This document shows, in pieces, positions 2,058-33,926 of a DNA stretch of 64,000 nucleotides (within the stretch, counting starts at the first letter, position 1; the number at the start of each line of letters is the position of its first letter). The notes under the pieces are model-generated. The model ran no database searches. It saw only the letters and a list, made by a program, of their open reading frames with translations, and had not been told where the DNA came from. Both the position numbers and the translations under genes were made by a program. The stretch is from the NCBI GenBank assembly GCA_021777565.1, contig JAJYDJ010000001.1, positions 160,142 to 224,141 of the forward strand, written 5' to 3'. The stretch comes from a bacterium. GTDB lineage: Bacteria; Patescibacteriota; Microgenomatia; Levybacterales; UBA12049.

Positions 2058-2804
2058 TTATTTTGCAGCACTGGAAGCAGCTTGAGTGGCGCCAAGTTCT
2101 TGTAAAATCCCTTGGTTGATGACTGGATTTATTGGCAGGTCAGTAAATTCTATGACGCGAAGTGCATTGATATTCCCATTGGATTCAGGCATACCAATAA
2201 CACTCACACGCTTGCCAACAACAAGTTTGGAAAAGCCAGCTTTGGCAATATTGGTACTTTGGCTGTAGGTAGAGGTTTTGGTGGTATTTTGTATATCTAC
2301 GGTCACTTTTTTATTGGCATTGGTAACAATCACCATTTGATAATTCTTCTTGTCTATTGAACCGATGGCACCAGTTAAGAACTGGGGAAGATTCATGACA
2401 TCCACAAAACGACCTAACATACGCTGAGAGTCTTTGTTATACAGTCCCAAAATACCCAATGTTGCCCCTTTTTGGATATCAGAGATGCCAAAGTTATTAC
2501 TTTTGGGAGAAGAGAATTTTGTAAGTTCATCAACGTCGACATAGCGTGTGTTCCCAGCGAGATCGGTCAGTGTAAGTTGGGTGTCACTTGTATCGGTGAC
2601 TGTTCCGATAAATCCACGTTTCTCAACCAGCTTGAGCTCAGCGACTTTGGAGGCGATGCGTGACTTGAGTGCGTCAATCTCAGGATTGAGTGTTGGGGTA
2701 GCTGACGTACTCGCCGCTGCTGGCGTAATCGTAGGTGTAGGGGCCGCCGCGTAGACGGTGGTATGCATAAAGAGTGCAAGTAATGTTGTGATGATTTGTA
2801 TCAT
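2058..2804 (-). CDS. secreted hypothetical protein
   Basis: N-terminal signal peptide (MIQIITTLLALFMHTTVYAAAP) followed by an Ala/Thr/Pro linker; no recognisable catalytic motif. Confidence 0.4.
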   Translation of the reverse strand: MIQIITTLLALFMHTTVYAAAPTPTITPAAASTSATPTLNPEIDALKSRIASKVAELKLVEKRGFIGTVTDTSDTQLTLTDLAGNTRYVDVDELTKFSSPKSNNFGISDIQKGATLGILGLYNKDSQRMLGRFVDVMNLPQFLTGAIGSIDKKNYQMVIVTNANKKVTVDIQNTTKTSTYSQSTNIAKAGFSKLVVGKRVSVIGMPESNGNINALRVIEFTDLPINPVINQGILQELGATQAASSAAK

Positions 2805-6103: not shown

Positions 6104-6865
6104 CTACTGGTAGGTAATATCAAGGGAATCAATCTGGGACTGGTTCAGCCCGAGGGATAGTGCCCAGGTGTTAAATGCCTCTCTAGCACTTACACTGTCA
6201 TGTTGAGGTGATGCGACTGAAAAGGCAAAATGTTCCTGTGGTGATTCTACTAGTTGTCCGGTAAGTGAAAAGGCACTTTCAGTGTGTGGTGCATGATCCA
6301 TAAGGTAAGCATCAGGATATTTATTTTTATTTGTTTCGCTACGGAGAATATTATGGTTGTCTGGGAATGGTTGTGTACTATCCTGGATAGTACTGAAAGC
6401 AAAGCTGTTGTATGTCACCTGATTTTGACTGCCAACAAAGACGTAGTAGGTGGTATTGGCCTGTAGCGGTTGGCTTAGTGTCATCTGGTATTGATTGCCA
6501 GTCTGGCTCAGGGTAAATGGAACACTTGGCACGATATCGGCATGAATCTGGTCAGTTGTAGGGGACTGAGACAAGGTAAAACTTATATTAGTAGCAAGAG
6601 GGACGTTAGTTGCTTGGTTGGCTGGTGTACTGGAGATGATTGTCAAAACTGGTGGCGGTGTGGGCTTAGTGGTCTGGCCGCTGCTTGGCAGAGAGGACGT
6701 AGGTTGTGTTGATCCACCTGTTGGGATAGGGACGAGCGGATTTTGGCCAGGAGTGGTTTTAAATGAGGTAGTGTAGATCAGAAAAACGGTGATCAAAATA
6801 ATACCGACTCCAATAATGCCACTGATGAGTAACAGATTTCTTTGCATAGCTATATTGGCCTCCAA
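6104..6865 (-). CDS. membrane-anchored surface protein with SbsA/Big_5-like Ig domain
   Basis: N-terminal TM helix, Ser/Thr/Pro linker, STPANQATNVPLATNISFTLSQ pattern typical of bacterial Ig-like domain 5; overlaps both neighbours, indicating an operon. Confidence 0.45.
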   Translation of the reverse strand: MEANIAMQRNLLLISGIIGVGIILITVFLIYTTSFKTTPGQNPLVPIPTGGSTQPTSSLPSSGQTTKPTPPPVLTIISSTPANQATNVPLATNISFTLSQSPTTDQIHADIVPSVPFTLSQTGNQYQMTLSQPLQANTTYYVFVGSQNQVTYNSFAFSTIQDSTQPFPDNHNILRSETNKNKYPDAYLMDHAPHTESAFSLTGQLVESPQEHFAFSVASPQHDSVSAREAFNTWALSLGLNQSQIDSLDITYQ

Positions 6866-11035: not shown

Positions 11036-11176
11036 ATGAAAAAAATAATGTGGGAGGTCGGTGCAGGGGTACTGTTAGTACTCTTGACTGTTTCTTTATA
11101 TCTGTGGCTTCCTGTCTCAAAAAATCAGGTGCAGTATGGAAGAACTGTTGTCCCTGTGCAATTACTTCAAAACTAA
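11036..11176 (+). CDS. possible small membrane protein (46 aa)
   Basis: ATG-initiated MKKIMWEVGAGVLLVLLTVSLYLWLP... with one TM helix, in an otherwise unexplained 180-nt gap. Below the ORF-track size cutoff. Confidence 0.2.
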   Translation: MKKIMWEVGAGVLLVLLTVSLYLWLPVSKNQVQYGRTVVPVQLLQN

Positions 11177-12433
11177 TAGATATTGTGCGTACCAAACACC
11201 AAGCATCACGATATAGGCAATCAGGGTAGGGATGGTTGCGAACTTTATGTATTTGGACATGGTGAGTTCTTTTACTCCGCTCATGACGGCAATGCCTGCA
11301 GCACTGCCCAGAAGCAAGATTGAACCACCATTTCCTATGGTGAGCGCTAAAAGGACCCAGAGACTTTGATTAGGCAGCGTGACGAGTTTCATAGTGACGG
11401 CAGTAAGTGGAATGTTATCAAAGAATGCAAAAAGGACACCTACCAGTGCTGATCCCCAGACGACGTGCATGAACTCTTGGGTCGCCCCGAAGATCATGCG
11501 TGAAAGTGCCTCAAGAATACCAAGTGCATTAAGGGCATTGGCAGCAAGCAAGATACCTACATAAAAATTTACTGAGGCGATATCAAGTTGTTTAAAAATA
11601 TCTTCCATCACATCAACAGAGGATCCTTTTTGGGTAACATTCTCGTATTGGAGGAAGAGCCAGAGTATACCTAAGCCAAAGAGAAGACCGATATAGGGAG
11701 GCAGGCCAATATTGTTGGCAAGGACTGGAAGGAGGAAGCTCACGCTGGAACCAGCAATAACGAGCTTATCTTTTTTGCTCAAGATGGTGGGATTTTCTTC
11801 TTTTTTTGCAATGTGATCGGAAGGATCAAGTTGAAAGTACAAGATCCCACATGATACCAAAAGGAAGGCAACTGCAGGCAAAAATCCTTCACGGATCACC
11901 GTGAGAGCATCATATTTCCCAGCAATCCACAAAAGTACCGTCGTCACGTCTCCAATTGGAGAGAATGATCCTCCTGCATTGGCTCCAATGACGATAGCAG
12001 CTGCCGCAATAAGCATGTTTCTCCCTTTGAAAAAATGTCTGGCGACCTGGACCATAAGCAGTCCGACTGTCATGTTATCAAGCATGGCTGAGAGGAAGAA
12101 ACTTCCAAGACTTAAAAAGATAAACTGTTTGCGTACATCGATGGAGAGTTCAAGTAGTTTTTCTTTTAAGTATTCAAAAAAATGATGACGTGCCATCAGC
12201 TCAACCAGAGCCATGGATGCTAGAAGAAACATTAAAATACCAAAAATTTCATTACCCGTCTGTTGAAATGCTGCCTGAACATAGGCATGAGATTTTCCCA
12301 TAAGTACCACAATAAGCCACAGAGCACCTCCCAAAACAAGGGCAATGGCAGCCTTACTGGTTCGGAAAACACGTTCAAAAGAAATCAGAAAAAATGAAAA
12401 AACAAAAAGAATAACGGCAATAACTTCTGTCAT
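11162..12433 (-). CDS. ArsB/NhaD-superfamily ion transporter (NhaD-like Na+/H+ antiporter)
   Basis: 423 aa, about 12 TM helices, two-repeat architecture with Gly-rich re-entrant-like segments. Confidence 0.5.
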   Translation of the reverse strand: MTEVIAVILFVFSFFLISFERVFRTSKAAIALVLGGALWLIVVLMGKSHAYVQAAFQQTGNEIFGILMFLLASMALVELMARHHFFEYLKEKLLELSIDVRKQFIFLSLGSFFLSAMLDNMTVGLLMVQVARHFFKGRNMLIAAAAIVIGANAGGSFSPIGDVTTVLLWIAGKYDALTVIREGFLPAVAFLLVSCGILYFQLDPSDHIAKKEENPTILSKKDKLVIAGSSVSFLLPVLANNIGLPPYIGLLFGLGILWLFLQYENVTQKGSSVDVMEDIFKQLDIASVNFYVGILLAANALNALGILEALSRMIFGATQEFMHVVWGSALVGVLFAFFDNIPLTAVTMKLVTLPNQSLWVLLALTIGNGGSILLLGSAAGIAVMSGVKELTMSKYIKFATIPTLIAYIVMLGVWYAQYLLVLK

Positions 12434-12451: not shown

Positions 12452-13252
12452 TTAGAAAGGGTTAAGTTGTTTGAAAGCCAACAACCCAGAGTGGAGTTTA
12501 CTTTTAACCGATTTGACTCGTGGCTTGATCTTGATGGGTTTGAGATTCATTGGCTTGAGCTTCAAATGGGCCGGAAGATTCATGTGCTGCTGGACTGTTG
12601 TGATGTATCGATAGGGGTATTCAATGTAGGGCATCAATTTTTTCCATCGCCGAGGAGAGGAATCCACAATGAGTTTGGTATCGAACTTAATTTTGCCGTA
12701 TTTTGCCAGATGAATAGAAAGATCAATATCTTCATGAACGAGCCGATCATTCGTGCACACTTCATTTTTGATCTTTTGCCACGCTTCTTTCCTCATAGCG
12801 ATATTTGGACCAAACATCACATCGTGTCCAAGCATACTTTTCACAGAGAGAAGGACAACATTGGCCGGCCATTCCCTTAATCTTAAAATCTTTGGAATAT
12901 CATAAAACTGTGCTGGGCCTGAGAGTCCAATCACATCGGGGTGAGCGGTCATATATCGCTTGATATGCGCAATCCAGTTGGGTCGAAGACGCGTATCAGC
13001 ATCGGTTCGACAAATGAGATCCCCAGTCGCAGCATTAAAGCCAGCATTGCGTGAAAAAGATGCTCCTGGCGTTTTTTCCTTTACCACACGTACAGATGGA
13101 AATTCCTTAACGATCTCAACCGTTCGATCTGTGCAGTTATTATCAACCACGATTACCTCATCTGGCTGCTCTGTCTGAGCAAAAACACTCTCTAAACAGG
13201 CACGGATGTATTGTTCTTCATTCCAGGCGGGGATAGTAAGGGAGACTTTCAT
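12452..13252 (-). CDS. family 2 glycosyltransferase
   Basis: GT2 N-terminal motifs SLTIPAWNEEQYI, VIVVDNNCTDRT, RTDADTRL (DXD). Confidence 0.7.
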   Translation of the reverse strand: MKVSLTIPAWNEEQYIRACLESVFAQTEQPDEVIVVDNNCTDRTVEIVKEFPSVRVVKEKTPGASFSRNAGFNAATGDLICRTDADTRLRPNWIAHIKRYMTAHPDVIGLSGPAQFYDIPKILRLREWPANVVLLSVKSMLGHDVMFGPNIAMRKEAWQKIKNEVCTNDRLVHEDIDLSIHLAKYGKIKFDTKLIVDSSPRRWKKLMPYIEYPYRYITTVQQHMNLPAHLKLKPMNLKPIKIKPRVKSVKSKLHSGLLAFKQLNPF

Positions 13253-13276
13253 ACGCTCAAATATATTTTAGCACAT

Positions 13277-14140
13277 TTATTTGGCCAATATCTGCAGAAG
13301 GACCGATGGAAGCATCTCTTTAGGGGTTGCCAGAAGATAACTTGTCACAACAAGAAGAACAAGAATCAATGTAGGAAGTGGAAGAAGGAACATCCATGGA
13401 TTGGAGATGGTTATTGGTTTATTTGGGGCCACTCGTGCTGGTCCAGTCCCAAATTTGACCTCTTTGCCACGCCAAAGTGCGATTTGGTTGGCTATAGAAT
13501 AGCCAAAAACGAGTTTCATCATGCCAATATCGGTCATACGACGCATAGAAGTGTATATATACATATTGAGGTTATATTCTACTTTGCCAACTTTCTTCAA
13601 CTGAAAACACAGTTCCTGATCCTCTCCAAAGGTGCGAGTGGTATCAAATCCGCCAATTTTCTCAAAGGCGCTCTTGCGTACCGCGATATTTGGGAACAAA
13701 AAGCCTCGCTGGAGGAATTTTAATAAATACATCCATCCAACTGTTGCTGGATAATATAGGAAATTTTCCCACCAGTAGCTTTCCAGAGGGTAGAGCGGGC
13801 CCCCCACGGCGACAATGTCTGGCCGTTTTTCAAATGAGTCAGCCACGGTCTGAAGCCATGTCTTGGGGAGCACATAATCGGCATCGGCTCTGGCAATAAT
13901 ATCAGCTTTGGCGCCATAAAATCCTGCATTACATGCATGGGCATAGCCTTGTTTCTTCTCTTTGATCACCCTAGCCCCCATAGACTGAGCTATCTCAGAG
14001 GTTTTATCAGTACTGTTATTATCAACCACAATCACTTCATAGGGGCCTTTGTAGGTTTGCACTTTGAGTGATTCCAGCAGCTTCGGCAGGAATTTTTCTT
14101 CGTTGTAGGTAGGAATTACGACAGAAATGTGAGGTTTCAT
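13277..14140 (-). CDS. family 2 glycosyltransferase with C-terminal TM segment (polyprenol-phosphate sugar synthase-like architecture)
   Basis: VVIPTYNEEKFL, VIVVDNNSTDKT, ADADYVL, plus a C-terminal hydrophobic helix as in DPM1/ArnC/GtrB-type enzymes. Confidence 0.65.
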   Translation of the reverse strand: MKPHISVVIPTYNEEKFLPKLLESLKVQTYKGPYEVIVVDNNSTDKTSEIAQSMGARVIKEKKQGYAHACNAGFYGAKADIIARADADYVLPKTWLQTVADSFEKRPDIVAVGGPLYPLESYWWENFLYYPATVGWMYLLKFLQRGFLFPNIAVRKSAFEKIGGFDTTRTFGEDQELCFQLKKVGKVEYNLNMYIYTSMRRMTDIGMMKLVFGYSIANQIALWRGKEVKFGTGPARVAPNKPITISNPWMFLLPLPTLILVLLVVTSYLLATPKEMLPSVLLQILAK

Positions 14141-14216
14141 ACAAGTCTACTTCGGTCTTTCTAGTATATCAGGGGTTTTTGCCTGATGCAACGAACTTCC
14201 CACATAAGGCTGATTT

Positions 14217-14225
14217 TGTTATACT
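14217..14225 (+). promoter_or_regulatory. extended -10 promoter element upstream of tRNA-Cys
   Basis: TGtTATACT ending about 12 nt before the tRNA 5' end. Confidence 0.35.
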
Positions 14226-14237
14226 ACGTGTGTGTTT

Positions 14238-14309
14238 GGCGCGTTGGCGAAGTGGTAACGCAGGGGTCTGCAAAACCTCCATGCGCCGGTTCAATCCCGG
14301 CACGCGCCT
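14238..14309 (+). tRNA. tRNA-Cys(GCA)
   Basis: Manual cloverleaf: acceptor GGCGCGT/ACGCGCC, anticodon stem GGGGT/ACCTC, loop CTGCAAA (anticodon GCA), T-arm GCCGG-TTCAATC-CCGGC, discriminator U; no encoded CCA. Confidence 0.9.
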
Positions 14310-14352
14310 CAAACTCTTGGCTGAAAGGCACACTATTTGCTATAATGTGTCA

Positions 14353-14637
14353 ATGGGACGGATGGTGGAAAATGGAGCATATGCTCCACACCAAGAATTT
14401 GTGCAAACTGATGACGGATTTAGCGAATCCAAATTGAGGAAGCGAACAGAGACGGCACAGTCTCAAACAGATCCTCAGTTGGATGAACTCATCCTTCTGT
14501 CCCAAACGCTCACAAGTCTTTTGGAGCATTATCGATCACTACTTGTGACCGATCTGCACCAGGCAGCGAGAGTCCGAGAAGAAATCGCTCGTACTAAAGC
14601 ACGACTTGAAGAGCTATTTCAGACGATTGGAACATAA
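14353..14637 (+). CDS. hypothetical small helical protein (94 aa) between two tRNA genes
   Basis: ATG just after a TATAAT; coding-like, charged/helical composition. The upstream part of track ORF 14179-14637 overlaps the tRNA and is rejected. Confidence 0.3.
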   Translation: MGRMVENGAYAPHQEFVQTDDGFSESKLRKRTETAQSQTDPQLDELILLSQTLTSLLEHYRSLLVTDLHQAARVREEIARTKARLEELFQTIGT

Positions 14638-14640: not shown

Positions 14641-14712
14641 GGGCGCATGGCTCAGTGGTAGAGCGCGTTCCTGATAAGAACGAGGTCCTTGGTCCGATCC
14701 CAAGTGCGCCCA
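14641..14712 (+). tRNA. tRNA-Ile(GAU)
   Basis: Acceptor GGGCGCA/TGCGCCC, D-arm GCTCAGTGGTAGAGC, anticodon loop CTGATAA (GAU), T-arm CTTGG-TCCGATC-CCAAG, discriminator A. Confidence 0.9.
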
Positions 14713-14760
14713 CCCGCAATACTTCATTTTGCCTCCAGGATTTTTGTTATAGAAGAAAAT

Positions 14761-15163: not shown

Positions 15164-16003
15164 TTATTTTGCGGATTGGGTCGCTGGTGCTGTGGTGACT
15201 ACAGGTTTTACAGAAGGCATAGGAGTAACGGTTGGCATGGTTAAGGGAATGGTTATCTGATTCTCAAGCTTGAGTACTGACTGAACAACACCTTTTGCGG
15301 TAACCAGGGATTTTGGCAGGATCTTGACGACTGTTGAACCACTTGCGGAGGCAGCTGGCAAAAGCTGCAGTTCGATAACGGTTCCTGCTCCTTTGACGGG
15401 AAGTTGTGTCGGAGTAATTCCTAGCGCATAGGTGAAATTACCGGTCTTCATATTCAGGTCTTTAAAGAGGACATCAGGATTGGCAAAGAAACTTGCAGGA
15501 GTTGCGGTGACACTTGAGAAGGCTGCTGGATCAAAGCTTAACTCTAACTGCACGGCTGTAACTTCGTTACCGCCACTATCAATGTGTACGTCAACAGTCC
15601 TCATTTTGCTTGAGCTGGTAGCTGGCTGCAGTTCAAGTGAGAGTACGGTCTGGGCTACTGGTGTGGGCGTTGGTTTTGGAGCGGTAGGCGTTTTTTTGAC
15701 ACTGCCAGGATATTGCGTGATAGCTAAATACAAAAGGAAGACAGTAATAAGTGCGAGCGCTGCAATAAAGAATGTTGTTCGTCGTGGGAGGGACATAAAT
15801 GATCCCGTTGGCTGTCCACCTACTGGTGGCATTTCTGGTGGCACAGGTGTTGCTGGAGGAGTCATTGGTGATGGCGCAGCAGAGGTCGAGGCCTCAGGGG
15901 TTGGAATAGCAGGCATTGTTGGAGTAGGGATAGGTGATCCACTTGGCGTAACTGGTGATGTATCCATATATCCATCATAAAGATTGTTTTGACATTGTGT
16001 CAA
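15164..16003 (-). CDS. membrane-anchored Pro-rich surface protein with cohesin-like domain
   Basis: Pro/Thr-rich N-terminus, one TM helix, then SGGNEVTAVQLELSFDPAAF...GAGTVIELQLLPAA resembling the cohesin-domain consensus. Confidence 0.4.
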   Translation of the reverse strand: MTQCQNNLYDGYMDTSPVTPSGSPIPTPTMPAIPTPEASTSAAPSPMTPPATPVPPEMPPVGGQPTGSFMSLPRRTTFFIAALALITVFLLYLAITQYPGSVKKTPTAPKPTPTPVAQTVLSLELQPATSSSKMRTVDVHIDSGGNEVTAVQLELSFDPAAFSSVTATPASFFANPDVLFKDLNMKTGNFTYALGITPTQLPVKGAGTVIELQLLPAASASGSTVVKILPKSLVTAKGVVQSVLKLENQITIPLTMPTVTPMPSVKPVVTTAPATQSAK

Positions 16004-16023: not shown

Positions 16024-16968
16024 ATGAAGGTTCGTCAATCTGTTTTTGATACATACTGGTACTTTGCTGCAGAGAGGCAGAACATTTTTTTTAATAGGCT
16101 GAATGGCCGTGAGCCCCTGACACAAGATCCAATTTTTCAAATGTACAAGTTCTGTAATAGCTATCGGGCCAGTGATAGAGTGTCTCAGTTTCTCATTCGT
16201 GAAGTCATATATAACAAGCAGTATTCAGAGGAAGACACCTTATTTCGTATCTTTCTCTTTCGGCTTTTGAATAAAAGTGAGACCTGGGGGCTTTTGGAAA
16301 AGGAATTAGGTGAGATTTCTTTGCGCACCTTTTCTCCTGATAGGTATGCCCGCGCCATTGAAAGTATCTATGCAAGGGGAGAGATAGTCTATGGCAATGC
16401 ATTTATCTTGTGTGCGACCAAAGCATTTGGATTTGATAAAAAACATGAAAATCATATGGCACTGATGAAATATGTTTTCCGCGACACGGACTTCTCCCAA
16501 AAACTCTTGCATGCCACCTCACTGCAACATCTGTTTGAGACACTTCGCTCACTTCCCTTGATAGGGGACTTTATGGCATATCAGATCGCGATTGACTTAA
16601 ATTACTCGGATGTCTTTAATTTTGATGAAAATGATTTCACTATTGCTGGTCCTGGTGCCAAACGTGGCATTGCAAAATGTTTTGAAGATACGAATGGCAA
16701 AGACAGCGCCTATGTGATCCAGTGGATGGTTGAAAATCAGGATAAAGAGTTTGCCCGTCTGGGGATCAATTTTCAATCTCTGTGGGGGAGAAAGTTACAT
16801 GCAATCGATTGTCAGGGACTTTTTTGTGAAACCGATAAATATTCACGAGTCAAATTCCCTGAGCTTAAAAGTAATAGAGTACGTATGAAGACAACCTTTT
16901 CTAGGCATAGCAGCCAAATATCATATTTTTACCCACCCAAATGGGGGATTAATGAAAAGATAGGATAA
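16024..16968 (+). CDS. conserved hypothetical protein (314 aa), possibly a nucleic-acid-acting enzyme
   Basis: Basic/aromatic N-terminus and a candidate helix-hairpin-helix-like GPGAKRGIAKCF element; no firm family assignment. Confidence 0.35.
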   Translation: MKVRQSVFDTYWYFAAERQNIFFNRLNGREPLTQDPIFQMYKFCNSYRASDRVSQFLIREVIYNKQYSEEDTLFRIFLFRLLNKSETWGLLEKELGEISLRTFSPDRYARAIESIYARGEIVYGNAFILCATKAFGFDKKHENHMALMKYVFRDTDFSQKLLHATSLQHLFETLRSLPLIGDFMAYQIAIDLNYSDVFNFDENDFTIAGPGAKRGIAKCFEDTNGKDSAYVIQWMVENQDKEFARLGINFQSLWGRKLHAIDCQGLFCETDKYSRVKFPELKSNRVRMKTTFSRHSSQISYFYPPKWGINEKIG

Positions 16969-17567: not shown

Positions 17568-18896
17568 ATGCTTCAAAAGACTGATAAAGAAGTGTATGAT
17601 CTGATTCAAAAAGAAGAAGAACGTCAGCGTGACGGATTGGAAATGATCCCCTCAGAGAACTATACCAGCGCAGAAGTACGTGAATGCCTCGGCTCAATTC
17701 TTACGAATAAATATTCAGAAGGGTACCCAAAAAAGAGATATTACGGTGGAAATGAATTTATCGATGAAATCGAGATATTAGCGCAAAATCGAGCAAAAAA
17801 GTTGTTCGATGTTCCTCATGCCAATGTACAGCCATATTCTGGGAGTCCAGCGAATTTTGCGGTCTATGTGGCAGTGTGTGAACCAGGCGACAGCGTCATG
17901 GGACTCAATCTTCCTGATGGTGGCCATCTGACTCATGGGTGGAAAGCATCCGCAACCGCAAAGTTTTTTGACTCTCATCCCTACCATGTAAAGCCTGACG
18001 GTCATGTCGATATTGATGAAGCATGGAAGATCGCCAAAGAGTACAAACCCAAGCTTATTTGGGCTGGAGCCACTGCATATATGTATCAGTATGAATTTGA
18101 GAAGTTTGCCGAGATTGCAGATAGTGTTGGGGCTTACTTTGCTACAGATATAGCCCATGTTGCAGGATTGGTCGCTGCAGGCTCCCACCCAAGTCCAGTG
18201 CCTTATGCACATATCGTTACGACTACCACGCATAAGACACTTCGTGGTCCACGTGGTGGCATGATCATGGTGACTGAGAAAGGTCTTGCCAAGGATCCAG
18301 ACTTGGGTAAAAAAATTGACGCGGCTATTTTCCCTGGTATTCAGGGAGGTCCACACAATCATCAGACAGCAGCTATTGCCGTGGCACTTGAACAAGCGAT
18401 GACGCCTGCATTCAAAGAGTATGGCCAGCAGATAGTCACCAATGCGAAAGCCCTGGCAGAAGCCCTGAAAAAAGAAGGATTGACCTTGGTTGGCAATGGT
18501 ACGGAAAATCATCTGATTTTAATTAATCTTGTCCCCTTGATGGGACCTGGTGGAGGAGCACTTGCCGAGCATGCTTTGGGACTTATCAATATTACGATGA
18601 ATAAAAATACTATTCCTGCCGAACCAGCCTCACCTTTCTTCCCAAGTGGTCTCCGTCTAGGTACCCCGACACTGACTACCCGTGGCATGAAAGAGGATGA
18701 TATGGGTAAAGTCGCTCACTGGATAGCGGCAGCACTGCATGAGATTAAGGATTATCATATGCCTGAGGAGAAAGAAGCACGACCCAAATACGTCAAAGAA
18801 TTTAAAGAAAAGATTGAAGGGAATGCAAATCTTATGAAGCTCCGTCAGGAGGTTATTGCCTTTGCTCATGATTTCCCAGTAGAACCTACCCTCTGA
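17568..18896 (+). CDS. glyA: serine hydroxymethyltransferase
   Basis: SHMT motifs EMIPSENYTS, GSPANFAVY and the PLP-lysine region TTTTHKTLRGPRGG. Confidence 0.95.
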   Translation: MLQKTDKEVYDLIQKEEERQRDGLEMIPSENYTSAEVRECLGSILTNKYSEGYPKKRYYGGNEFIDEIEILAQNRAKKLFDVPHANVQPYSGSPANFAVYVAVCEPGDSVMGLNLPDGGHLTHGWKASATAKFFDSHPYHVKPDGHVDIDEAWKIAKEYKPKLIWAGATAYMYQYEFEKFAEIADSVGAYFATDIAHVAGLVAAGSHPSPVPYAHIVTTTTHKTLRGPRGGMIMVTEKGLAKDPDLGKKIDAAIFPGIQGGPHNHQTAAIAVALEQAMTPAFKEYGQQIVTNAKALAEALKKEGLTLVGNGTENHLILINLVPLMGPGGGALAEHALGLINITMNKNTIPAEPASPFFPSGLRLGTPTLTTRGMKEDDMGKVAHWIAAALHEIKDYHMPEEKEARPKYVKEFKEKIEGNANLMKLRQEVIAFAHDFPVEPTL

Positions 18897-18920
18897 TTTC
18901 TGGAATTTACCCCAACATTT

Positions 18921-18929
18921 TGGTACAAT
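18921..18929 (+). promoter_or_regulatory. extended -10 promoter element for tRNA-His
   Basis: TGgTACAAT ending about 11 nt before the tRNA 5' end. Confidence 0.35.
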
Positions 18930-18940
18930 AAGGCTATCTT

Positions 18941-19017
18941 GGTGGCTGTAGCTCAGTTGGTTAGAGCGTCAGTTTGTGGTACTGAATGTCGCGGGTCCGA
19001 ATCCCGTCAGCCACCCA
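18941..19017 (+). tRNA. tRNA-His(GUG) with genomically encoded G-1
   Basis: G-1 plus acceptor GTGGCTG/CAGCCAC, C73 pairing with G-1, anticodon loop TTGTGGT (GUG), T-loop TCCGAAT. Confidence 0.9.
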
Positions 19018-19097
19018 TAGAATCCTTTTTGTACCTACAACATCTCTCTTAGACGTCCCCATGCATTTCTGCAGATCGTCTTTATGTAGTTAGGGGG

Positions 19098-19127
19098 TTG
19101 CAAAAGAGTATTGTATGATGGCATACT
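19098..19127 (+). promoter_or_regulatory. candidate promoter for the metK leader
   Basis: TTGCAA (-35), 17-18-nt spacer, CATACT (-10), ending about 6 nt before riboswitch helix P1. Confidence 0.3.
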
Positions 19128-19132
19128 AACTA

Positions 19133-19216
19133 TGCATTCAGAGAGATAGGAGAGTATCGGCTCGTACCTATCCGGCAACCCTTCATAGCATGGGTGCCAA
19201 ACCGACATAGAATGTG
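19133..19216 (+). promoter_or_regulatory. SAM-I-clan (S-box-like) riboswitch in the metK 5' leader
   Basis: P1 TGCATTC...GAATGTG; conserved blocks AGAGAGATAGGAGAG (compare AAGAGAGGUGGAGGGA), CCGGCAACC (J3/4 GGCAACC) and GGGTGCCAA (compare UGGUGCCAA); located 15 nt upstream of the metK ATG. Confidence 0.5.
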
Positions 19217-19230
19217 ATTTTAGATAAACT

Positions 19231-20337
19231 ATGCAAGACTACACGTTTACTTCAGAATCTGTTTGTAGCGGACACCCCGATAAAGTGTGTGATCAAATAA
19301 GTGATGGTATCGTCGATGCAGTCCTTTCAAAAGATCCTCGTGGGAGGGTTGCGATGGAAGCACTCGTTACTGAAAATAAGATTGTACTCGCAGGAGAAGT
19401 GACGACTTCTGCAAAAGTTGATTTTGAAGCTATCACTAGGCAAGTTATAAAAGACCTAGACTATACTGATTCTCGATTTCGATTTACTCATGAATCTTCT
19501 CTGGACATGTATATCCACGAGCAGTCTCCTGAAATTGCTGCTGGCGTAGATGAAGAAGGAGCTGGAGATCAAGGGATGATGTTTGGGTATGCGTGTCATG
19601 AAACACCTGAGCTGATGCCATTACCAATCACACTTGCTCATCGTATGGCGCAGAAAATTGACGATGTAAGAAAATCTAAAGTCATTGCATATCTTCGCCC
19701 TGATGGGAAGACACAGGTGAGTGTACGATATGAGAATGGAAAGCCTGTCGCTATTACATCGGTTGTCATTGCTGTCCCTCATGAGGAAGAGAAGCAATTA
19801 AAAGAAGTACGCAATAGCTTGTATAGAGAAGTTGTCAGTCCTGTTTTGGCCGCGTATGGTTTTACATTCCCAGAGGATCAAGTCATTGTGAATGGAACAG
19901 GCATTTGGCACATTGGCGGACCGGCCAGTGATACAGGACTTACAGGGCGTAAAATTGTTGTGGATGGCTATGGTGGGTATGCCAGGGTAGGTGGGGGTGC
20001 TTTTTCTGGGAAAGACCCAACAAAGGTTGATCGATCAGGGGCGTATGCTGCACGATTTCTGGCAAAAAATATTGTTGCAAAAGGGTTAGCAGAGAGAGCT
20101 GAAGTGAGACTAGCTTACTTTATCGGAGCAAAAAAACCGTTGATGCAAGACGTTGAAACATTCGGAACAGAAAAAGTCTTGAGAGAACATATTCAAAAGT
20201 TCATGCATGAGATTTTAGATACATCAGTCGCTGGTATCCTCAAAACGTTGAATTTACGAACACCTATCTATAAAAATACTGCTGCCTATGGGCATTTCGG
20301 TCGGAGTGAGTTCCCGTGGGAAAAAATTGTGGCATGA
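19231..20337 (+). CDS. metK: S-adenosylmethionine synthetase
   Basis: SESVCSGHPDKVCDQISD, GAGDQGMMFGYA and GGGAFSGKDPTKVDRS motifs. Confidence 0.95.
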   Translation: MQDYTFTSESVCSGHPDKVCDQISDGIVDAVLSKDPRGRVAMEALVTENKIVLAGEVTTSAKVDFEAITRQVIKDLDYTDSRFRFTHESSLDMYIHEQSPEIAAGVDEEGAGDQGMMFGYACHETPELMPLPITLAHRMAQKIDDVRKSKVIAYLRPDGKTQVSVRYENGKPVAITSVVIAVPHEEEKQLKEVRNSLYREVVSPVLAAYGFTFPEDQVIVNGTGIWHIGGPASDTGLTGRKIVVDGYGGYARVGGGAFSGKDPTKVDRSGAYAARFLAKNIVAKGLAERAEVRLAYFIGAKKPLMQDVETFGTEKVLREHIQKFMHEILDTSVAGILKTLNLRTPIYKNTAAYGHFGRSEFPWEKIVA

Positions 20338-20380
20338 TCACTTCAGTATCTTAAAAGATAATCTTTGCTATACTAGGGGC

Positions 20381-21523
20381 ATGCGACGAGTGCTTCTGAT
20401 CATTGGTTTATTTATCTCTTCACTCTTTAGTTTTTCTCCAAGTGCACATGCTCAAAGTATGCAAAATCTCCAGGATTTTTTCATGAAAGGCACCATTGTT
20501 TCTTCTCAACAGGAGACGGGGAGTAGTCTTGGTGGTTCGCAAGTACCAACGGACTTAGAAGTAAAAGTACTTGATGGCCCACTGCAAGGCAAAACCGTGG
20601 CAGTACAGTATCTCTTTGACCAAAACGGCTCGATGGGGAGTATGGGGGTAGGGACAACGATTATTCTGGAAGCCAAAACTGATCCAACGACAGGAAGTTT
20701 GCAATATGGTGTCTATGAACAGTATCGACTTGATTGGGTATGGGTAGTACTCGGAGCATTTTTGATCGTCATTGTGGGTATCGCGAGGTGGCGTGGACTG
20801 GGATCGGTGGCTGGGCTTCTGGTTAGTCTTGGCATTATCGGTGGATATATCGTGCCACAGATTATTAATGGTGCTGATCCACTGCAAACTTGTCTAGTTG
20901 GTTCTGGCATCATTCTTCTCATTACAACCTATATTGCCCATGGTATCTCGCTTCGAACCACCCTTGCTGTTGTATCCACTGGTATTGTTCTTGTTCTGGC
21001 TGTGGGATTAGCGCAGCTTGTTGTACATCTACTGCAATTGTCTGGGATTGGTAATGAAGAAATATATAATCTACAGGTTGGGATGACGCATTCGATCAAT
21101 CCTCAAGGGCTTTTCCTTGGTGGGCTTCTGATCGGTACACTTGGTGCCCTCAATGACATCACGACCACCCAGGTTATTACCGTCTTTACCCTTATTGATG
21201 AGAAAGCAGGCAAGTCAGTAGGGGAGCTCTTTAAAAAAGGTATGGCAATTGGTCAGGAGCATATTGCCTCACTCATCAATACACTTGTCCTTGCCTACGC
21301 TGGGACATCCCTTGGTGTCTTTATTTTCTTTGGCCTGAACCCCATGCACTTGCCTTGGTGGGTACTCATGAATAATGAGGGTACCGTCGAGGAAATCGTG
21401 CGAAGTGTGGTTGGCAGTATCGCTTTGATTTTGGTAGTTCCTGTGAGCACATGGCTGGCTGCCTGGATTGGGCTGCAAGGTACACGACTCAAAGATTTCT
21501 TCCCAGAGCCCAAGAAAGGGTAG
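20381..21523 (+). CDS. YibE/F-family integral membrane protein
   Basis: Signal peptide, soluble ~90-aa domain, then about 8 TM helices with Gly-rich segments; start placed at MRRVLL, preceded by TGCTATACT. Confidence 0.5.
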   Translation: MRRVLLIIGLFISSLFSFSPSAHAQSMQNLQDFFMKGTIVSSQQETGSSLGGSQVPTDLEVKVLDGPLQGKTVAVQYLFDQNGSMGSMGVGTTIILEAKTDPTTGSLQYGVYEQYRLDWVWVVLGAFLIVIVGIARWRGLGSVAGLLVSLGIIGGYIVPQIINGADPLQTCLVGSGIILLITTYIAHGISLRTTLAVVSTGIVLVLAVGLAQLVVHLLQLSGIGNEEIYNLQVGMTHSINPQGLFLGGLLIGTLGALNDITTTQVITVFTLIDEKAGKSVGELFKKGMAIGQEHIASLINTLVLAYAGTSLGVFIFFGLNPMHLPWWVLMNNEGTVEEIVRSVVGSIALILVVPVSTWLAAWIGLQGTRLKDFFPEPKKG

Positions 21524-21549: not shown

Positions 21550-21646
21550 ACCTCTATCACACACATTCAGTACTAAATCCTGACTGATGACAGTTCAGAC
21601 TGAATGGAGGAGTCCCGCCTACGGCGAGGCGAAGAAGGATTTAATT

Positions 21647-22507
21647 ATGAAAGCAATTACACTTGAAGAACTGCTTGAGGCCGGATGCCATTTTGGGCAC
21701 CAGGTTGGCCGTCAAAATCCAAAAGCACGAGACTATGTCTTCGAAGCTCGCGATGGAGTCCACATTATTGATCTTGCCTTGACCAAAGAAGGTCTTGAAA
21801 AGGCAGCCGAATATATTAAACAAGTGGCTTCAGAAGATGGAACACTTTTGATCGTTGGATCAAAAAGACAAGCTGTTCCTGTTTTGACAGAGAAACTCCA
21901 AACACTTCGCAGTGCACTTCAGGAAAAAGGAGTCAGTGATAATCTCTACACCGTAACCGCTCGTTGGATTGGTGGAACATTGACCAATTCTGAGCAGATG
22001 ATCAAAAACTACAAGAGACTTGAAGACTTGACTGAAAAGCTTCAGGATGAAGTAGTAAAAGCCCGCTACACCAAGAAAGAACTTGGTCTCATGGAAAAAC
22101 AGCGCGGAAAGTTGAACACATTCTACTCAGGTCTTTTAGGTATGACCACCAAACCAACAGCTATCTTTGTTATCGACACACATTTTGAAGAACTTGCAGT
22201 CAAAGAAGCAAAGAAAATGGGTGTTCCTGTAGTTGGAATTGTTGATACCAATGCTGATCCAGATCCAGTTGACTATGTTATCCCAGCTAACGATGATGCC
22301 GCAGGAAGTTTGGAACTTTTGATTGGCTACATCTTGGATGCATGGCAAGAAGGTCGCACCGGGGTTGAAGCAAAAAAAGCAGCCAAGAGTAAAAAAGAAG
22401 CAGCAGTTGAAGAAGAAATCAAAGAAGAAGAAAAAACTGAAGAGAAAAAAGCAGAAAAACCTGCAAAGAAAACTACTACAAAGAAAGCAAAAAAGGAGGA
22501 TAAATAA
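21647..22507 (+). CDS. rpsB: 30S ribosomal protein S2 with Lys/Glu-rich C-terminal extension
   Basis: MKAITLEELLEAGCHFGHQ..., FVIDTHFEELAVKEAKKMGVPVVGIVDTNADPD; AAGAAGGA SD. The track start at 21587 is judged too long. Confidence 0.9.
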   Translation: MKAITLEELLEAGCHFGHQVGRQNPKARDYVFEARDGVHIIDLALTKEGLEKAAEYIKQVASEDGTLLIVGSKRQAVPVLTEKLQTLRSALQEKGVSDNLYTVTARWIGGTLTNSEQMIKNYKRLEDLTEKLQDEVVKARYTKKELGLMEKQRGKLNTFYSGLLGMTTKPTAIFVIDTHFEELAVKEAKKMGVPVVGIVDTNADPDPVDYVIPANDDAAGSLELLIGYILDAWQEGRTGVEAKKAAKSKKEAAVEEEIKEEEKTEEKKAEKPAKKTTTKKAKKEDK

Positions 22508-22509
22508 TC

Positions 22510-22962
22510 GTGGCATTTGATCTTACCATGTTGAAAAAACTTCGTGAGGAAACAGAAGCTTCTATTGCAGATTGCCGCATGGCGCTTGAAGAGACTGATG
22601 GTGACTACCAAAAAGCCCTTGAATGGATCAAAAAGCGAGCAGTCGCAAAAGCCGAGAAGAAAGCAGATCGTGAAGCAGGACAGGGAATTGTCGAGGCATA
22701 CATTCATGGAAATGGCAAAATTGGTGTTTTGGTACAACTTCTGTGCGAGACTGATTTCGTAGCCCGAACTGATGACTTCAAGAACTTGGCTCATGACATC
22801 GCACTGCAAATTGCTGCCATGAACCCTGAAAATGTCGAAGAACTTCTCAAACAAGAATTTATTAAAGATACTTCAGTGACGATTGAACAGAAAATCAAGC
22901 AAGTCATTGGCAAACTGGGTGAGAATATCATCTTGAAAGGTTTTGCCAGACTTGATATATAA
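22510..22962 (+). CDS. tsf: elongation factor Ts (minimal, 150 aa)
   Basis: MAFDLTMLKKLREETEASIADCRMALEETDGDYQKALEWIKKR is the EF-Ts N-terminal UBA-like domain; GTG start with AAGGAGG SD. Confidence 0.85.
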   Translation: MAFDLTMLKKLREETEASIADCRMALEETDGDYQKALEWIKKRAVAKAEKKADREAGQGIVEAYIHGNGKIGVLVQLLCETDFVARTDDFKNLAHDIALQIAAMNPENVEELLKQEFIKDTSVTIEQKIKQVIGKLGENIILKGFARLDI

Positions 22963-22969
22963 TATTAGT

Positions 22970-23521: not shown

Positions 23522-23563
23522 TTTCCCCTCGGGTCTTCCTGTTTTTTTCAGTAGAAGTATAGT

Positions 23564-24688: not shown

Positions 24689-24729
24689 CTTTACATCTCC
24701 TGTCTTGCGTCATACAATGAAACAAGAAT

Positions 24730-32625: not shown

Positions 32626-32958
32626 ATGAAGACGCAGGATGCATTCGCCGCACTTGATATCCGGGTTGGTAAAATTATTGCCGTGTCTCTTCTGCCAAAT
32701 CCGCGCTACACCACCCATAAACTTACTATAGATTTAGGGCCAGAAATTGGTCAAAAAACATCTGGTGCACGGGTTCTTAACTATACGCAGGAAGAGCTGA
32801 TGGGAAAATTAGTACTTTGTGTGATCAATCTCCCCCCCAAACAAATTGGTGGTACTATGTCGGAAGTTCTGACGCTTGGTGTGCCTGATGCAGGGCATGA
32901 ATGTGTATTGATCTCTCCAGATAATGAAAAAGCAGTTATTGGTGGCAAACTCTACTAA
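32626..32958 (+). CDS. tRNA-binding protein (CsaA/Trbp111, EMAP-like OB fold)
   Basis: LDIRVGKII...HKLTIDLGPE...LVLCVINLPP typical of Myf/EMAP tRNA-binding domains. Confidence 0.65.
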   Translation: MKTQDAFAALDIRVGKIIAVSLLPNPRYTTHKLTIDLGPEIGQKTSGARVLNYTQEELMGKLVLCVINLPPKQIGGTMSEVLTLGVPDAGHECVLISPDNEKAVIGGKLY

Positions 32959-33926
32959 CTCAATCCCGGGATTGGGAATGGAAGCTTCAAGTTAAATATT
33001 TTAATCCACAAGACCATATATCCCAGAAGAAAAATAACAGCTCCAACAACATAAATAGCAACTGAGGTAGGACTTTTGGCTTTGGGTGCTATATAGCCAT
33101 GCACAGCATCCCCATGTTTGGCTCCACTGGCTGCTGGCGTTTCTGGAAGTGGTGGCAGTGGAGTCGTGGCAACTGGCGCTTCAGGAGTTGGTGGTGTTGG
33201 AATTGGTCCCAGGGACTCAGTGGGAGCAGGTGTCTCTGGAAGGGTTGGCACTTCTGGCTGTTCTTCTGGTGCGCTTGGCATTGGTGCTACTGGTGATGCT
33301 ACCAGATCTTCTGGTGGCATCTTGTGCTGCTCTGTTGTATCTGCTGGTGTAGTCTGAGTACTTGGGGTAGGCGTAGGTGTCGTTGATACACCTGGAATGT
33401 CCAGTGGTGGCATCACTGGTGGCTCAGGTGGTGTCCCTGGCGTAGGGGCTGCGGGAGACGTTGGGATGGATTCTGTTGGCTGCTCTGGAGTTGATGGCAT
33501 CACTGTCTCCGGAATCTCTGTTGACGTTGTTTCGGAGGGTGTTGCTACTTCCTCAGCCACCAGTTTTGGTGCTTCTACTGGCTGCTCTGGAGTAGTGGGC
33601 ATACTAGGTGTTACTTCAGGTGCTGCAGGTGTGCTTGGTGTTACGTCAGTTGGAATGGTTATCTCTGGTGCCGGTGGAGGAGGGGTTGGATTGGCAGATT
33701 GAGTAAATGGTCGATCTGATACAGATGGTGCCAATTCATCACTGGATGGCATGATCTCAGGTGCACGTTGTGTCTGTGGGGTAGCAGTTGGTGTGGCTTG
33801 ATCGCTTGGTGTCGTAGGGGTTACTGAGGGGGTACCACCCAGAACTGTGTTATAAATTTCCTGTAATTTTGGGTCAATCGTATCAGCCATGTATTCATCG
33901 TAACAACCTAGAGAAGAGAATGTCAA
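32955..33926 (-). CDS. Pro/Thr/Glu-rich low-complexity surface protein with C-terminal TM anchor
   Basis: About 250 residues of PTPxxP/TPS repeats and a C-terminal hydrophobic helix VAIYVVGAVIFLLGYMVLWI. Confidence 0.5.
   Translation of the reverse strand: MTFSSLGCYDEYMADTIDPKLQEIYNTVLGGTPSVTPTTPSDQATPTATPQTQRAPEIMPSSDELAPSVSDRPFTQSANPTPPPPAPEITIPTDVTPSTPAAPEVTPSMPTTPEQPVEAPKLVAEEVATPSETTSTEIPETVMPSTPEQPTESIPTSPAAPTPGTPPEPPVMPPLDIPGVSTTPTPTPSTQTTPADTTEQHKMPPEDLVASPVAPMPSAPEEQPEVPTLPETPAPTESLGPIPTPPTPEAPVATTPLPPLPETPAASGAKHGDAVHGYIAPKAKSPTSVAIYVVGAVIFLLGYMVLWIKIFNLKLPFPIPGLS

Follow-up and report, generated by a model that had tools for sequence, protein, structure and literature searches.

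Introduction

The GT-C enzymes Emb, AftA-D, MptA/B and PimE of mycobacteria and corynebacteria build arabinogalactan and LAM using polyprenol-phosphate sugars. Protein O-mannosylation systems favour external Pro/Thr linkers; Pmt is single in kind, and multiple tandem PMT_2-type paralogs are atypical for it. Gram-positive bacteria possess multi-component transmembrane glycosylation systems, such as CsbB/GtcA/YfhO, GtlA/GtlB, GacI/GacK/GacL and CsdAB, and the PMT_2-type GT-C enzymes of monoderms mostly decorate LTA, WTA and wall polysaccharides (PMC8035078).

Life in attachment to other cells makes surface chemistry central to host recognition in Patescibacteria, yet this chemistry is almost unexplored. 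Literature searches for GT-C enzymes of Patescibacteria returned no paper, only passing mentions of annotations as "dolichol-phosphate mannosyltransferase". Here we describe the glycosyltransferase genes of a 64-kb stretch (the window) of a Patescibacteria chromosome of approximately 953 kb, together with the 10 kb beyond the window start. The window by itself holds ordinary glycosyltransferase genes and no unexpected mechanism: the cell-envelope glycan machinery in it is ordinary and falls into three unlinked pieces that do not make a single module.

Gene layout

The genes considered here are listed in Table 1. A sequence-only reading of the window had joined two GT2 genes, two GT-C genes and several Pro/Thr-rich surface proteins into one lipid-linked glycosylation module. 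The four transferase genes are not physically clustered in this way: their loci lie 10–30 kb apart with housekeeping genes between them, and the 10 kb before the window start contain housekeeping genes only. The window holds no GT2 besides GT2-A and GT2-B, and a search in it for a GtrA flippase, using an HMM trained on the GtrA domains of the fusion proteins described below, found none (best E 0.16).

Table 1. Glycosyltransferase genes, an adjacent permease gene and Pro/Thr/Ser-rich proteins of the window.
Feature	Coordinates	Strand	Description
GT2-B	13277..14140	-	287 aa; inverting GT-A (GT2) glycosyltransferase; PF00535 1.2e-31, PF13641 53.5 bits
GT2-A	12452..13252	-	266 aa; paralog of GT2-B, 24 nt downstream of GT2-B
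CitMHS/ArsB-NhaD-type permease	11162..12433	-	PF03600 2.4e-27; 18 nt downstream of GT2-A
GT-C1	24730..26442	+	570 aa; polytopic GT-C fold; directly downstream of rseP
GT-C2	56026..57702	+	558 aa; polytopic GT-C fold; divergent PMT_2/ArnT-like; 3' end overlaps the uvrA start
Candidate surface protein	15164..16003	-	Type II membrane protein; TM 77-95; external Pro/Thr linker 96-115; cohesin-like domain
Candidate surface protein	6104..6865	-	Signal-anchor TM 12-30; external P/T/S linker 42-84; Big_5 Ig-like domain
Candidate secreted protein	2058..2804	-	N-terminal signal-peptide-like segment, then P/T/S linker 19-42
Pro/Thr-rich tail-anchored protein	32955..33926	-	Sole TM at about residues 289-311; no signal peptide

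The GT2 pair

The two neighbouring GT2 genes proposed at 12452-14140 are confirmed as co-directional minus-strand ORFs, both of which match PF00535 with E values of about 1e-30 (103.2 bits for GT2-A and 110.3 bits for GT2-B, against a cut-off of 23.3) and PF13641 above threshold. They are paralogs of 37% identity. The motifs of GT2-B are D40, D86-x-D88, E173-D174 and S198-x-R200, of which D86-x-D88 is invariant in the family alignment (A3) from which invariant residues were taken. The C-terminal TM tail that had been described for one of the two proteins is present in GT2-B, where a conserved juxtamembrane linker is followed by a single TM helix at residues 252-270. It is absent from GT2-A, where the C-terminal tail is polybasic and the motif SSPRRWKK is conserved.

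This tail had been taken as typical of polyprenol-phosphate sugar synthases of the DPM1/ArnC/GtrB type. The C-terminal anchor of such synthases consists of two TM helices in GtrB and of one in yeast DPM1; the single TM in GT2-B is compatible with the family, not defining for it. The order of parts in GT2-B, with a GT-A domain followed by an amphipathic linker and a C-terminal TM, would suit a polyprenol-phosphate glycosyltransferase as well. The proposed kinship fails in the acceptor half of the proteins, into which the matches do not extend. The pair scores 39.1 and 28.0 bits against ArnC (NF007986), 48.2 and 20.4 bits against AglJ and, for GT2-B only, 21.3 bits against PpgS; the alignments to these models, to DPMS (5mlz), to GtrB (5ekp) and to the phage GtrB-like phrog_841 end by approximately residue 110, and cover just the N-terminal nucleotide-binding part of about 100 residues. 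As a positive control we used GT2 proteins of about 240 aa encoded just upstream of GT-C2 orthologs. These gave 110–112 bits for AglJ, 60–73 for PpgS and 56–64 for ArnC, with the AglJ match spanning the whole protein and the PpgS and ArnC matches doing likewise in one or both. An HMM built from the control proteins aligns to GT2-A and GT2-B only at model positions 1–106 of 240. Full-length catalytic-domain similarity to polyprenol-phosphate sugar synthases was found in neither GT2-A nor GT2-B, and these comparisons approach, without proving, the conclusion that the pair may lack lipid-carrier specificity.

The matches that do extend through the ED motif are to other families. The best NCBIfam match of GT2-B is TIGR04283, with 105 bits over residues 5-215 against a family cut-off of 182 (GT2-A, 79 bits). 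GT2-B also matches EpsD across residues 5-186, as well as MftF, and matches of the GT2 family profile extend to K4CP (E 4e-35, positions 4–193), PmHS2, PcManGT and BcsA. The scores of the pair are far under the cut-offs of the TIGR04283/MftF/EpsD-type families, so that as judged from these scores it is a member of none of them. WrtF (9omh) is matched over 3–200 by GT2-A alone; it acts on an Und-PP-linked O-polysaccharide (PMC12595478). More distant relatives of GT2-B match PF13506 (GT21 ceramide/DAG glucosyltransferase) and PF13632, and some of them are fused to a polysaccharide deacetylase (PF01522).

The ordered pair, B then A, recurs at two other loci (L003 and L004) with 50–55% identity and different neighbours, GT2-A orthologs lying directly downstream of GT2-B orthologs. 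The permease gene is probably co-transcribed with the pair in the window; it is not beside the pair in L003 or L004 and is therefore outside the conserved unit. A scan for promoters and terminators around the pair found sites no more numerous than in shuffled sequence. No conserved partner gene was found in the three ortholog contexts (the window, L003 and L004) or in 80 loci of more distant relatives, at all of which a GT-C1, GT-C2 or GtrA-like ORF is lacking within 8 kb. Pfam scans of neighbours in cultured genomes (Sphingomonas, Nitrosomonas, Rhodococcus, Nocardia, Actinoplanes and Sediminibacterium) gave unrelated functions, with the exception of one Bac_transf. GT2 proteins from the GT-C gene clusters of L006, L008 and L009 were considered as orthologs of the pair and rejected: their BLAST identities are only 23–35%, and the alignment of the short ones of about 240–250 aa is limited to the N-terminal part.

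GT-C1 and GT-C2

GT-C1 and GT-C2 are indeed two polytopic proteins of GT-C fold with an acidic first-loop motif, as the sequence-only reading had it, and the D-E pair is conserved in both. Each motif lies directly after TM1, the N-terminus of which is positively charged. In GT-C1 the motif is D36-E37-x-D39, whose three acidic residues do not vary across 37 sequences; the protein has a C-terminal extracytoplasmic α/β domain at approximately 430–570. GT-C2 contains Y-W-D37-E38 in the first loop plus D54-E55, with D37 invariant and E38 at least 90% conserved in 38 sequences, and ends in a soluble α/β domain at approximately 435–558.

Their placement in the PMT_2/ArnT family carries caveats. GT-C2 scores 22.9 bits for PF13231 (PMT_2) against a gathering threshold of 26.1, and most of its 35–44% identical orthologs carry PF13231. 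GT-C1 has no Pfam or NCBIfam match. Only remote members of its family reach PMT_2, such as P0467, which passes the threshold with 35.8 bits, and it is the fold and these remote intermediates that link GT-C1 to PMT_2. Comparison of the GT-C1 and GT-C2 alignments (A1 and A2) using hhalign found no relation (probability 7%).

More specific assignments found little. The domains expected of a protein O-mannosyltransferase (GT39), namely a PF02366 core, a C-terminal PMT_4TMC (PF16192) and, in eukaryotes, MIR, were matched by neither protein at E ≤ 0.01, and neither matches the ArnT equivalog NF009784. PDB sequence searches with both proteins and their family profiles gave ArnT as the best hit (5ezm, GT-C2 family profile, E = 0.046); hits to GABA receptor and LHC were discarded as noise, and the fold was addressed by structure prediction for both proteins. 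On inspection of the sequences, the WWD of the oligosaccharyltransferase WWDxG motif is absent from both, GT-C2 having a conserved "SWD/GWD" only. The fold of GT-C2 is as near to ALG12, AglB, STT3 and ArnT as to PMT.

A profile search put the size of the GT-C1 family at no fewer than 1380 representatives, clustered at 50% identity. Approximately 28 of the best 150 representatives carry an N-terminal GtrA/DPMS_TM flippase-type domain (PF04138, E 1e-20 to 1e-26); these fused proteins are distant members of the family. Homologs of GT-C1 and GT-C2 occur together on 14 contigs, as verified in L006, L009, L011 and L012, where the GT-C genes lie among YfhO, PMT_2 paralogs, GT2, GT4, epimerase and Wzx-like genes. 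In other Patescibacteria, orthologs of GT-C1 and GT-C2 co-cluster with YfhO, PMT_2 paralogs and AglJ/PpgS-type GT2s; in related genomes as many as seven PMT_2-type paralogs stand in tandem, together with a GT-C1 ortholog, and ftsA and ftsZ flank one GT-C1 ortholog. The suggestion that the GT-C enzymes use lipid-linked donors is thereby supported at the level of the family, by the GtrA fusions and by co-clustering with YfhO and AglJ/PpgS-type GT2s.

Pro/Thr/Ser-rich proteins

Four ORFs had been put forward as Pro/Thr/Ser-rich envelope proteins. The composition or linkers were found in all four, with P+T+S of 45% (32955-33926), 37% (15164-16003) and 33% (6104-6865), and the cohesin-like domain of 15164-16003 scores 24.0 bits against a cut-off of 24.1. 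In 32955-33926 the PT-rich part is N-terminal to the sole TM in a protein lacking a signal peptide, and is therefore predicted to be cytoplasmic. This would make it a poor target for a GT-C enzyme that faces outward. External Pro/Thr linkers are present in several of the window's secreted or anchored proteins. In our view the GT-C enzymes more probably decorate a cell-wall glycopolymer than O-glycosylate proteins.

Discussion

We propose, with a probability of roughly 0.55, that the GT2 proteins are a self-contained pair of membrane-acceptor glycosyltransferases and not donor synthases, and that GT-C1 and GT-C2 are separate envelope-glycan transferases that use polyprenol-phosphate sugars. The GT2 pair, which are the obvious candidates for donor synthases, are thus probably something else. 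GT2-B, by its C-terminal TM, and GT2-A, by its polybasic tail, would be tethered to the membrane on its cytoplasmic side, with catalytic domains that appear to be of the PF13641/TIGR04283/MftF/EpsD/"minimal cellulose-synthase-like" type carrying D, DxD, ED and SxRR motifs. The putative pair may act sequentially, adding two successive sugars from nucleotide sugars onto a membrane-bound acceptor; either a glycolipid or a glycan linked to undecaprenyl-PP would serve as this acceptor, and the product would not be a polyprenol-phosphate monosaccharide. In GT-C1 and GT-C2 the invariant Asp-Glu of the first extracytoplasmic loop seems to be positioned as the catalytic acidic motif, and the enzymes would move a sugar from a polyprenol-phosphate sugar at the outer face to an envelope acceptor. 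By analogy with the Gram-positive multi-component transmembrane glycosylation systems and from gene context in other genomes, the likeliest acceptor would be a wall-associated glycopolymer. The polyprenol-phosphate sugar synthase that is required (of AglJ/PpgS type in relatives) and a GtrA-type flippase would be encoded outside the window. If the genome contains no genuine AglJ/GtrB-type GT2 and GtrA elsewhere, the GT2 pair would become the only candidate donor synthase.

It seems very unlikely that the GT2 pair are polyprenol-phosphate sugar synthases like Ppm1/DPM1 and that GT-C1 and GT-C2 are Pmt-like O-glycosyltransferases acting on the Pro/Thr-rich surface proteins of the window. The C-terminal TM helix in GT2-B, the first-loop D-E motif in both GT-C proteins and the external P/T/S linkers in ORFs 15164, 6104 and 2058 would all be expected of such a system. 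However, the synthase models match the N-terminal half of the GT2 pair only, genuine AglJ/PpgS-type GT2s adjoin the GT-C2 orthologs elsewhere, and a GT-C or GtrA gene is near none of the 80 related GT2 loci. GT-C2 has no PF02366, PMT_4TMC or MIR and a fold as near to ALG12, AglB, STT3 and ArnT as it is to PMT; the tandem arrays of related genomes, in which a GT-C1 ortholog joins as many as seven PMT_2-type paralogs, are atypical for a Pmt; and the most PT-rich protein (the 32955 ORF) is predicted to be cytoplasmic. An intermediate arrangement, which we consider doubtful, keeps the wall glycopolymer as the acceptor and makes the GT2 pair non-orthologous polyprenol-phosphate sugar synthases that replaced the AglJ/PpgS type in a reduced genome and provide two sugars for two GT-Cs. 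The numbers agree, the window's only two GT2 genes being matched by two GT-C genes; the GT2-B layout of GT-A domain, linker and TM is compatible with it; and the GT-C arrays in L008, L009 and L011 are accompanied by GT2 pairs, of which one member each is of PF13641 type and about 316 aa long. GT2-A and GT2-B are, however, just 20–27% identical to the PF13641-type GT2s of those clusters, and the sequence tests put them outside the polyprenol-phosphate glycosyltransferase clade. No GT-C gene adjoins the orthologous GT2-B/A pair in either L003 or L004, and GtrA is missing from the window.

A narrower possibility concerns the GT2 pair only, which could be glycolipid synthases. Starting from diacylglycerol or some other scavenged lipid, they would form first a monoglycosyl and then a diglycosyl lipid as a membrane stabiliser or anchor, and would work independently of the GT-Cs. 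We note that this is a specific sub-case of the membrane-acceptor explanation. Some GT2 proteins of PF13641/GT21 type, HpnI and CruG for example, are lipid glycosyltransferases, and the NCBIfam models of these two are matched weakly by the pair; distant GT2-B relatives match PF13506 (GT21) and PF13632, and the pair forms a membrane-tethered, stand-alone unit of two genes with no conserved partner genes. On the other side, no specific match to a characterised glycolipid synthase was found, and the best full-domain PDB relatives (K4CP and WrtF for GT2-A, K4CP and PmHS2 for GT2-B) build polysaccharide; we hold the glycolipid version to be unlikely in this specific form.

A wider and speculative reading, which we hold to be unlikely, can also be offered. 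GT-C1 may found a large, unannotated, Patescibacteria-centred GT-C family, with a GtrA-fused subset, which together with PMT_2 arrays would assemble a complex surface glycan outside the membrane from polyprenol-phosphate sugars, while GT2-B and GT2-A would make a lipid or Und-PP-linked primer. If true, this would parallel the logic of mycobacterial arabinogalactan and LAM in ultra-small episymbionts. The GT-C transferases provide handles on the envelope biochemistry of Patescibacteria; one of the two families, that of GT-C1, is invisible to Pfam and NCBIfam and is tied to GtrA flippases and to the large GT-C arrays of related genomes. We also suggest caution, in that a "PMT_2-like" annotation should not be taken as evidence of protein O-mannosylation.

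Comparison with known systems

The ArnC/ArnT system (undecaprenyl-phosphate Ara4FN synthase and the lipid A Ara4N transferase, GT83) differs from the genes of the window at both steps: ArnC models match the GT2 pair at the N-terminus only, and the ArnT equivalog is unmatched, with a PDB profile E of 0.046. The lineage of the window is generally regarded as monoderm and without lipid A. The mycobacterial and corynebacterial GT-C arrays (Emb, AftA-D, MptA/B and PimE) share no detectable sequence similarity with GT-C1 and GT-C2, which are the only two members in the window. Actinobacterial Ppm1/Pmt (a DPM1-like GT2 and a GT39) is alike in its GT-C enzyme, which bears the D-E motif in the first loop, and in the presence of secreted proteins with Pro/Thr-rich linkers. 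It is unlike in that GT-C2 has no PF02366/PMT_4TMC, GT-C1 is Pfam-less, the GT2 pair is DPM1/Ppm1-like in the nucleotide-binding half only, and the GT-Cs of the window belong to multi-paralog families, whereas Pmt is single.

For the GT2 pair, the best full-domain matches are to the small GT2s of TIGR04283/MftF/EpsD type and to WrtF, which share the D, DxD, ED layout with GT2-A and GT2-B. In contrast to these, GT2-B adds a TM anchor, and the tandem-paralog arrangement is specific to the lineage of the window.

With respect to the Gram-positive systems, the GT-C genes of the window differ in being orphaned among housekeeping genes, with no GtrB/CsbB-type GT2 nearby, and no GtrA is encoded alongside them within the window as it is in a three-component GT2/GtrA/GT-C system. 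Related Patescibacteria, again unlike the Gram-positive systems, have far larger tandem arrays, of up to seven PMT_2-type paralogs and a GT-C1 ortholog. Teichoic acids are not known from the lineage of the window. The likeness is in the enzymes and in their relatives: the Gram-positive systems have outward-facing GT-C enzymes, often PMT_2-type or Pfam-less, which bear an acidic motif in one of the outer loops and use C55-P-sugar donors (PMC8035078), and correspondingly relatives of GT-C1 are fused to a GtrA domain, and the gene clusters of the orthologs contain YfhO together with a short polyprenol-phosphate sugar synthase.

The four transferase loci are separated by 10–30 kb with unrelated genes between them, and they do not form a physical module as proposed in the sequence-only reading. 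The window has no GT2 or GT-C genes beyond those listed in the table, and no GtrA gene. On the best-supported interpretation, these loci are separate components, not linked to one another, of the machinery for envelope glycans.

Features of the window and of related loci
Locus	Coordinates (strand)	Length	Description
GT2-A	12452–13252 (−)	266 aa	GT2 sugar transferase
GT2-B	13277–14140 (−)	287 aa	GT2 sugar transferase
ORF	14179–14637	152 aa	Between tRNA-Cys and tRNA-Ile, overlapping tRNA-Cys
tRNA-Cys, tRNA-Ile	14238–14310, 14641–14714		Divergent, just upstream of the GT2 pair
Surface protein	15164–16003 (−)		Type II membrane protein, Pro/Thr-rich either side of the TM helix; borderline cohesin match (24.0 bits, cut-off 24.1)
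5-hmdU kinase-like	16024–16968 (+)	314 aa	5-hmdU DNA kinase helical domain over nearly entire length (PF18723, E 2.4e-101); also PHROG phrog_2396 (3.9e-59)
Gene order	21587–26442		rpsB, short tsf-like ORF, frr, rseP, GT-C1
GT-C1	24730–26442 (+)		Large membrane transferase
GT-C2	56026–57702 (+)		Large membrane transferase
Transglutaminase-core	60729–62570 (+)	613 aa	TM helix at both ends; between uvrA and uvrC; shares ~150 nt with the listed uvrC ORF
L010, same contig, ~7 kb beyond window start	18213–21014	590 aa (Thy1/ThyX-like)	Thy1/ThyX-like protein, then dUTPase and dCTP deaminase
L007, other Patescibacteria genome	7001–8758		GT-C1 ortholog P0034, between ftsA and ftsZ
L008, L009, L012	7001–15196, 7001–15367, 200–11719		PMT_2-type arrays
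L093	2691–6491		GtrA::GT-C1-like fusion P0429 immediately downstream of a DUF2142 membrane protein

Structure and motifs of GT-C1 and GT-C2

Both proteins are indeed polytopic, and their predicted structures (pLDDT 91.1 for GT-C1 and 90.0 for GT-C2; pTM 0.90 each) identify them as GT-C fold enzymes. Sequence searches of the PDB returned no relative of either one. The GT-C2 model scored 25.4 against ALG12, 25.2 against AglB, 23.7 against STT3B, 23.5 against Pmt4, 23.2 against ArnT and 21.2 against Pmt2; identities in the GT-C structure comparison are 7–16%, and therefore neither protein is specifically PMT-like. The expected assignment to PMT_2 (PF13231) was approached by GT-C2, at 22.9 bits against a threshold of 26.1, while GT-C1 gave zero matches in Pfam and NCBIfam; one other GT-C1 relative exceeds the PMT_2 threshold.

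The first-loop acidic motif was borne out, and lies directly after TM1 in both proteins. Residues D36-E37-x-D39 of GT-C1 are all invariant in its family alignment (n = 37); in that of GT-C2 (n = 38) D37 is invariant and E38 is conserved at 90% or more. Both proteins end in a soluble α/β domain, which is the layout of ArnT and OST. The domains PMT_4TMC and MIR, which PMT has, are lacking from both.

Sugar donor and gene clusters of the GT-C families

A GT-C1 profile run against 1.84 billion representative proteins gave 1380 matches with an E-value of 1e-3 or lower, and 177 with one of 1e-30 or lower. Many distant family members have an additional ~140 N-terminal residues. In all four proteins picked for an N-terminal extension of about 135–190 residues, this is a GtrA/DPMS_TM domain (PF04138, E 1e-20 to 1e-26), and a local HMM found about 28 GtrA fusions among the top 150 members. 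In three-component glycosylation systems GtrA acts as the flippase (PMC8035078), so that its fusion to GT-C1-family members is good evidence for a polyprenol-phosphate sugar donor.

Clusters shared by GT-C1 and GT-C2 orthologs provide a second line of evidence for such donors. In other Patescibacteria, fourteen contigs, paired by their equal lengths, carry a homolog of each, an arrangement verified in four loci (L006, L009, L011 and L012). One recurrent order is YfhO, GT2 (~316 aa), GT2 (~238 aa), GT-C2 ortholog, PMT_2 paralogs and GT-C1 ortholog; in L012, seven tandem PMT_2 genes are followed by the GT-C1 ortholog, GT2, epimerase, GT4 and a Wzx-like gene. The arrays in the table, with up to seven paralogs and a GT-C1 ortholog, are accompanied by YfhO, DUF2079, acyltransferase_3, GT4, epimerase and Wzx-like genes, making up a very large extracytoplasmic glycosylation cluster. 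The division/cell-wall cluster around P0034 includes mraY, ftsW, murG and a gene for a Mur ligase. P0429 belongs to a small group of sugar-related genes, with one for an epimerase close by.

The GT2 pair

The two GT2 genes are adjacent, as had been described, with a 24-nt gap between them and a CitMHS-type permease gene 18 nt beyond GT2-A. Both proteins match PF00535 (E 1e-31 and 2e-29) and exceed the PF13641 threshold, and they are paralogs with 37% identity. GT2-B has a single C-terminal TM helix (residues 252–270); GT2-A has no TM helix, only a polybasic tail. The ORF between the two tRNA genes is probably not a real gene, because it overlaps tRNA-Cys.

The C-terminal TM tail noticed in one enzyme is thus present, but the likeness to DPM1/ArnC/GtrB drawn from it is not supported by sequence, since such models align N-terminally only. 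The best NCBIfam matches of GT2-B are TIGR04283 (105 bits, residues 5–215), MftF (87.8) and EpsD (83.3); ArnC (39.1 bits), AglJ (48.2) and PpgS (21.3) align over residues ~4–110 or less, and GT2-A shows the same pattern. Searches of the PDB, with single sequences and with the GT2 family profile, aligned K4CP, PmHS2, PcManGT and BcsA through the ED motif (and WrtF, with GT2-A alone), and DPMS, GtrB and ArnC only through the DxD motif. A phage "GtrB-like" PHROG match covers only positions 2–119 of 309. As a positive control we used the ~240-aa GT2 genes immediately upstream of GT-C2 orthologs in L008 and L009, which gave 110–112 bits with AglJ, 60–73 with PpgS and 56–64 with ArnC; the AglJ match spans the full protein, and those of PpgS and ArnC do so in one or both. 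Only positions 1–106 of the 240 in an HMM of these control genes aligned with GT2-A and GT2-B. Judged by sequence, then, the pair is not DPM1/ArnC/GtrB-like. Orthology with the GT2 genes of L008/L009-type clusters was ruled out (20–35% identity).

The B-then-A order is kept in L003 and L004 at 50–55% identity; the genes on either side differ there, and none of them encodes a GT-C enzyme. None of 80 loci with more distant GT2 relatives (29–56% identity, many phyla) has a GT-C1-like, GT-C2-like or GtrA-like ORF within 8 kb, and in cultured genomes the neighbours are functionally unrelated. More distant relatives match GT21 (PF13506), some being fused to polysaccharide deacetylase. The closest orthologs in the species-representative genome collection (L013/L004, 55% identity) are on CAZCCG010000005.1, which bears the title "uncultured Gammaproteobacteria". 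The genes it carries and its homology to the window suggest that it is a Patescibacteria contig with a wrong label or in the wrong bin.

Gene content of the window

GC content is even (0.41–0.47), and most genes are housekeeping genes (dnaB, glyA, metK, rpsB, frr, rseP, pgl/zwf/gnd, proS, dnaX, recR and cysS, together with efp, ATP synthase genes, dus and uvrA/uvrC). The proteins of the window have homologs assigned to Levybacteria/Levyibacteriota, Saccharimonadales or the "Patescibacteria group", and an identical GT2-B sequence with the same neighbouring genes occurs on a 953,194-bp ENA metagenome contig (ERZ27236897:k141_2336031). This places the window on a small chromosome of Patescibacteria (CPR), of which the analysis covered about 74 kb out of 953 kb. 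The genes uppS and cdsA, usual between frr and rseP, are missing from that slot. The 5-hmdU kinase-like gene is flanked by the surface protein gene and glyA, on a bacterial chromosome; together with the Thy1/ThyX-like, dUTPase and dCTP deaminase genes it may point to thymidine hypermodification of the cell's own DNA, or a phage remnant.

Proposed function

Pro/Thr/Ser-rich segments are present where they had been noted, and external PT linkers in three proteins would suit Ppm/Pmt-type O-glycosylation of surface proteins; however, the best candidate substrate, the ORF at 32955, is predicted to be cytoplasmic, and nothing specific supports this pathway. We propose instead that GT-C1 and GT-C2 would act outside the membrane on polyprenol-phosphate sugar donors, whose synthase and flippase genes would lie in other parts of the genome. 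A wall-associated glycopolymer is the most likely acceptor, by analogy with the PMT_2-type enzymes of monoderms, which decorate LTA, WTA and wall polysaccharides (PMC8035078); the arrays of multiple paralogs and the setting in a dcw cluster likewise point to a wall glycopolymer. A literature search returned nothing specific on GT-C enzymes of Patescibacteria.

The GT2 pair is best regarded as a self-contained, membrane-tethered two-enzyme unit. On the cytoplasmic side of the membrane it probably transfers two sugars to an acceptor that is either a lipid or Und-PP-linked. The GT2 and GT-C genes here belong to already known kinds; only the GT-C1 family is mildly novel, being large, centred on Patescibacteria, missed by both Pfam and NCBIfam, and tied to GtrA through fusion proteins.
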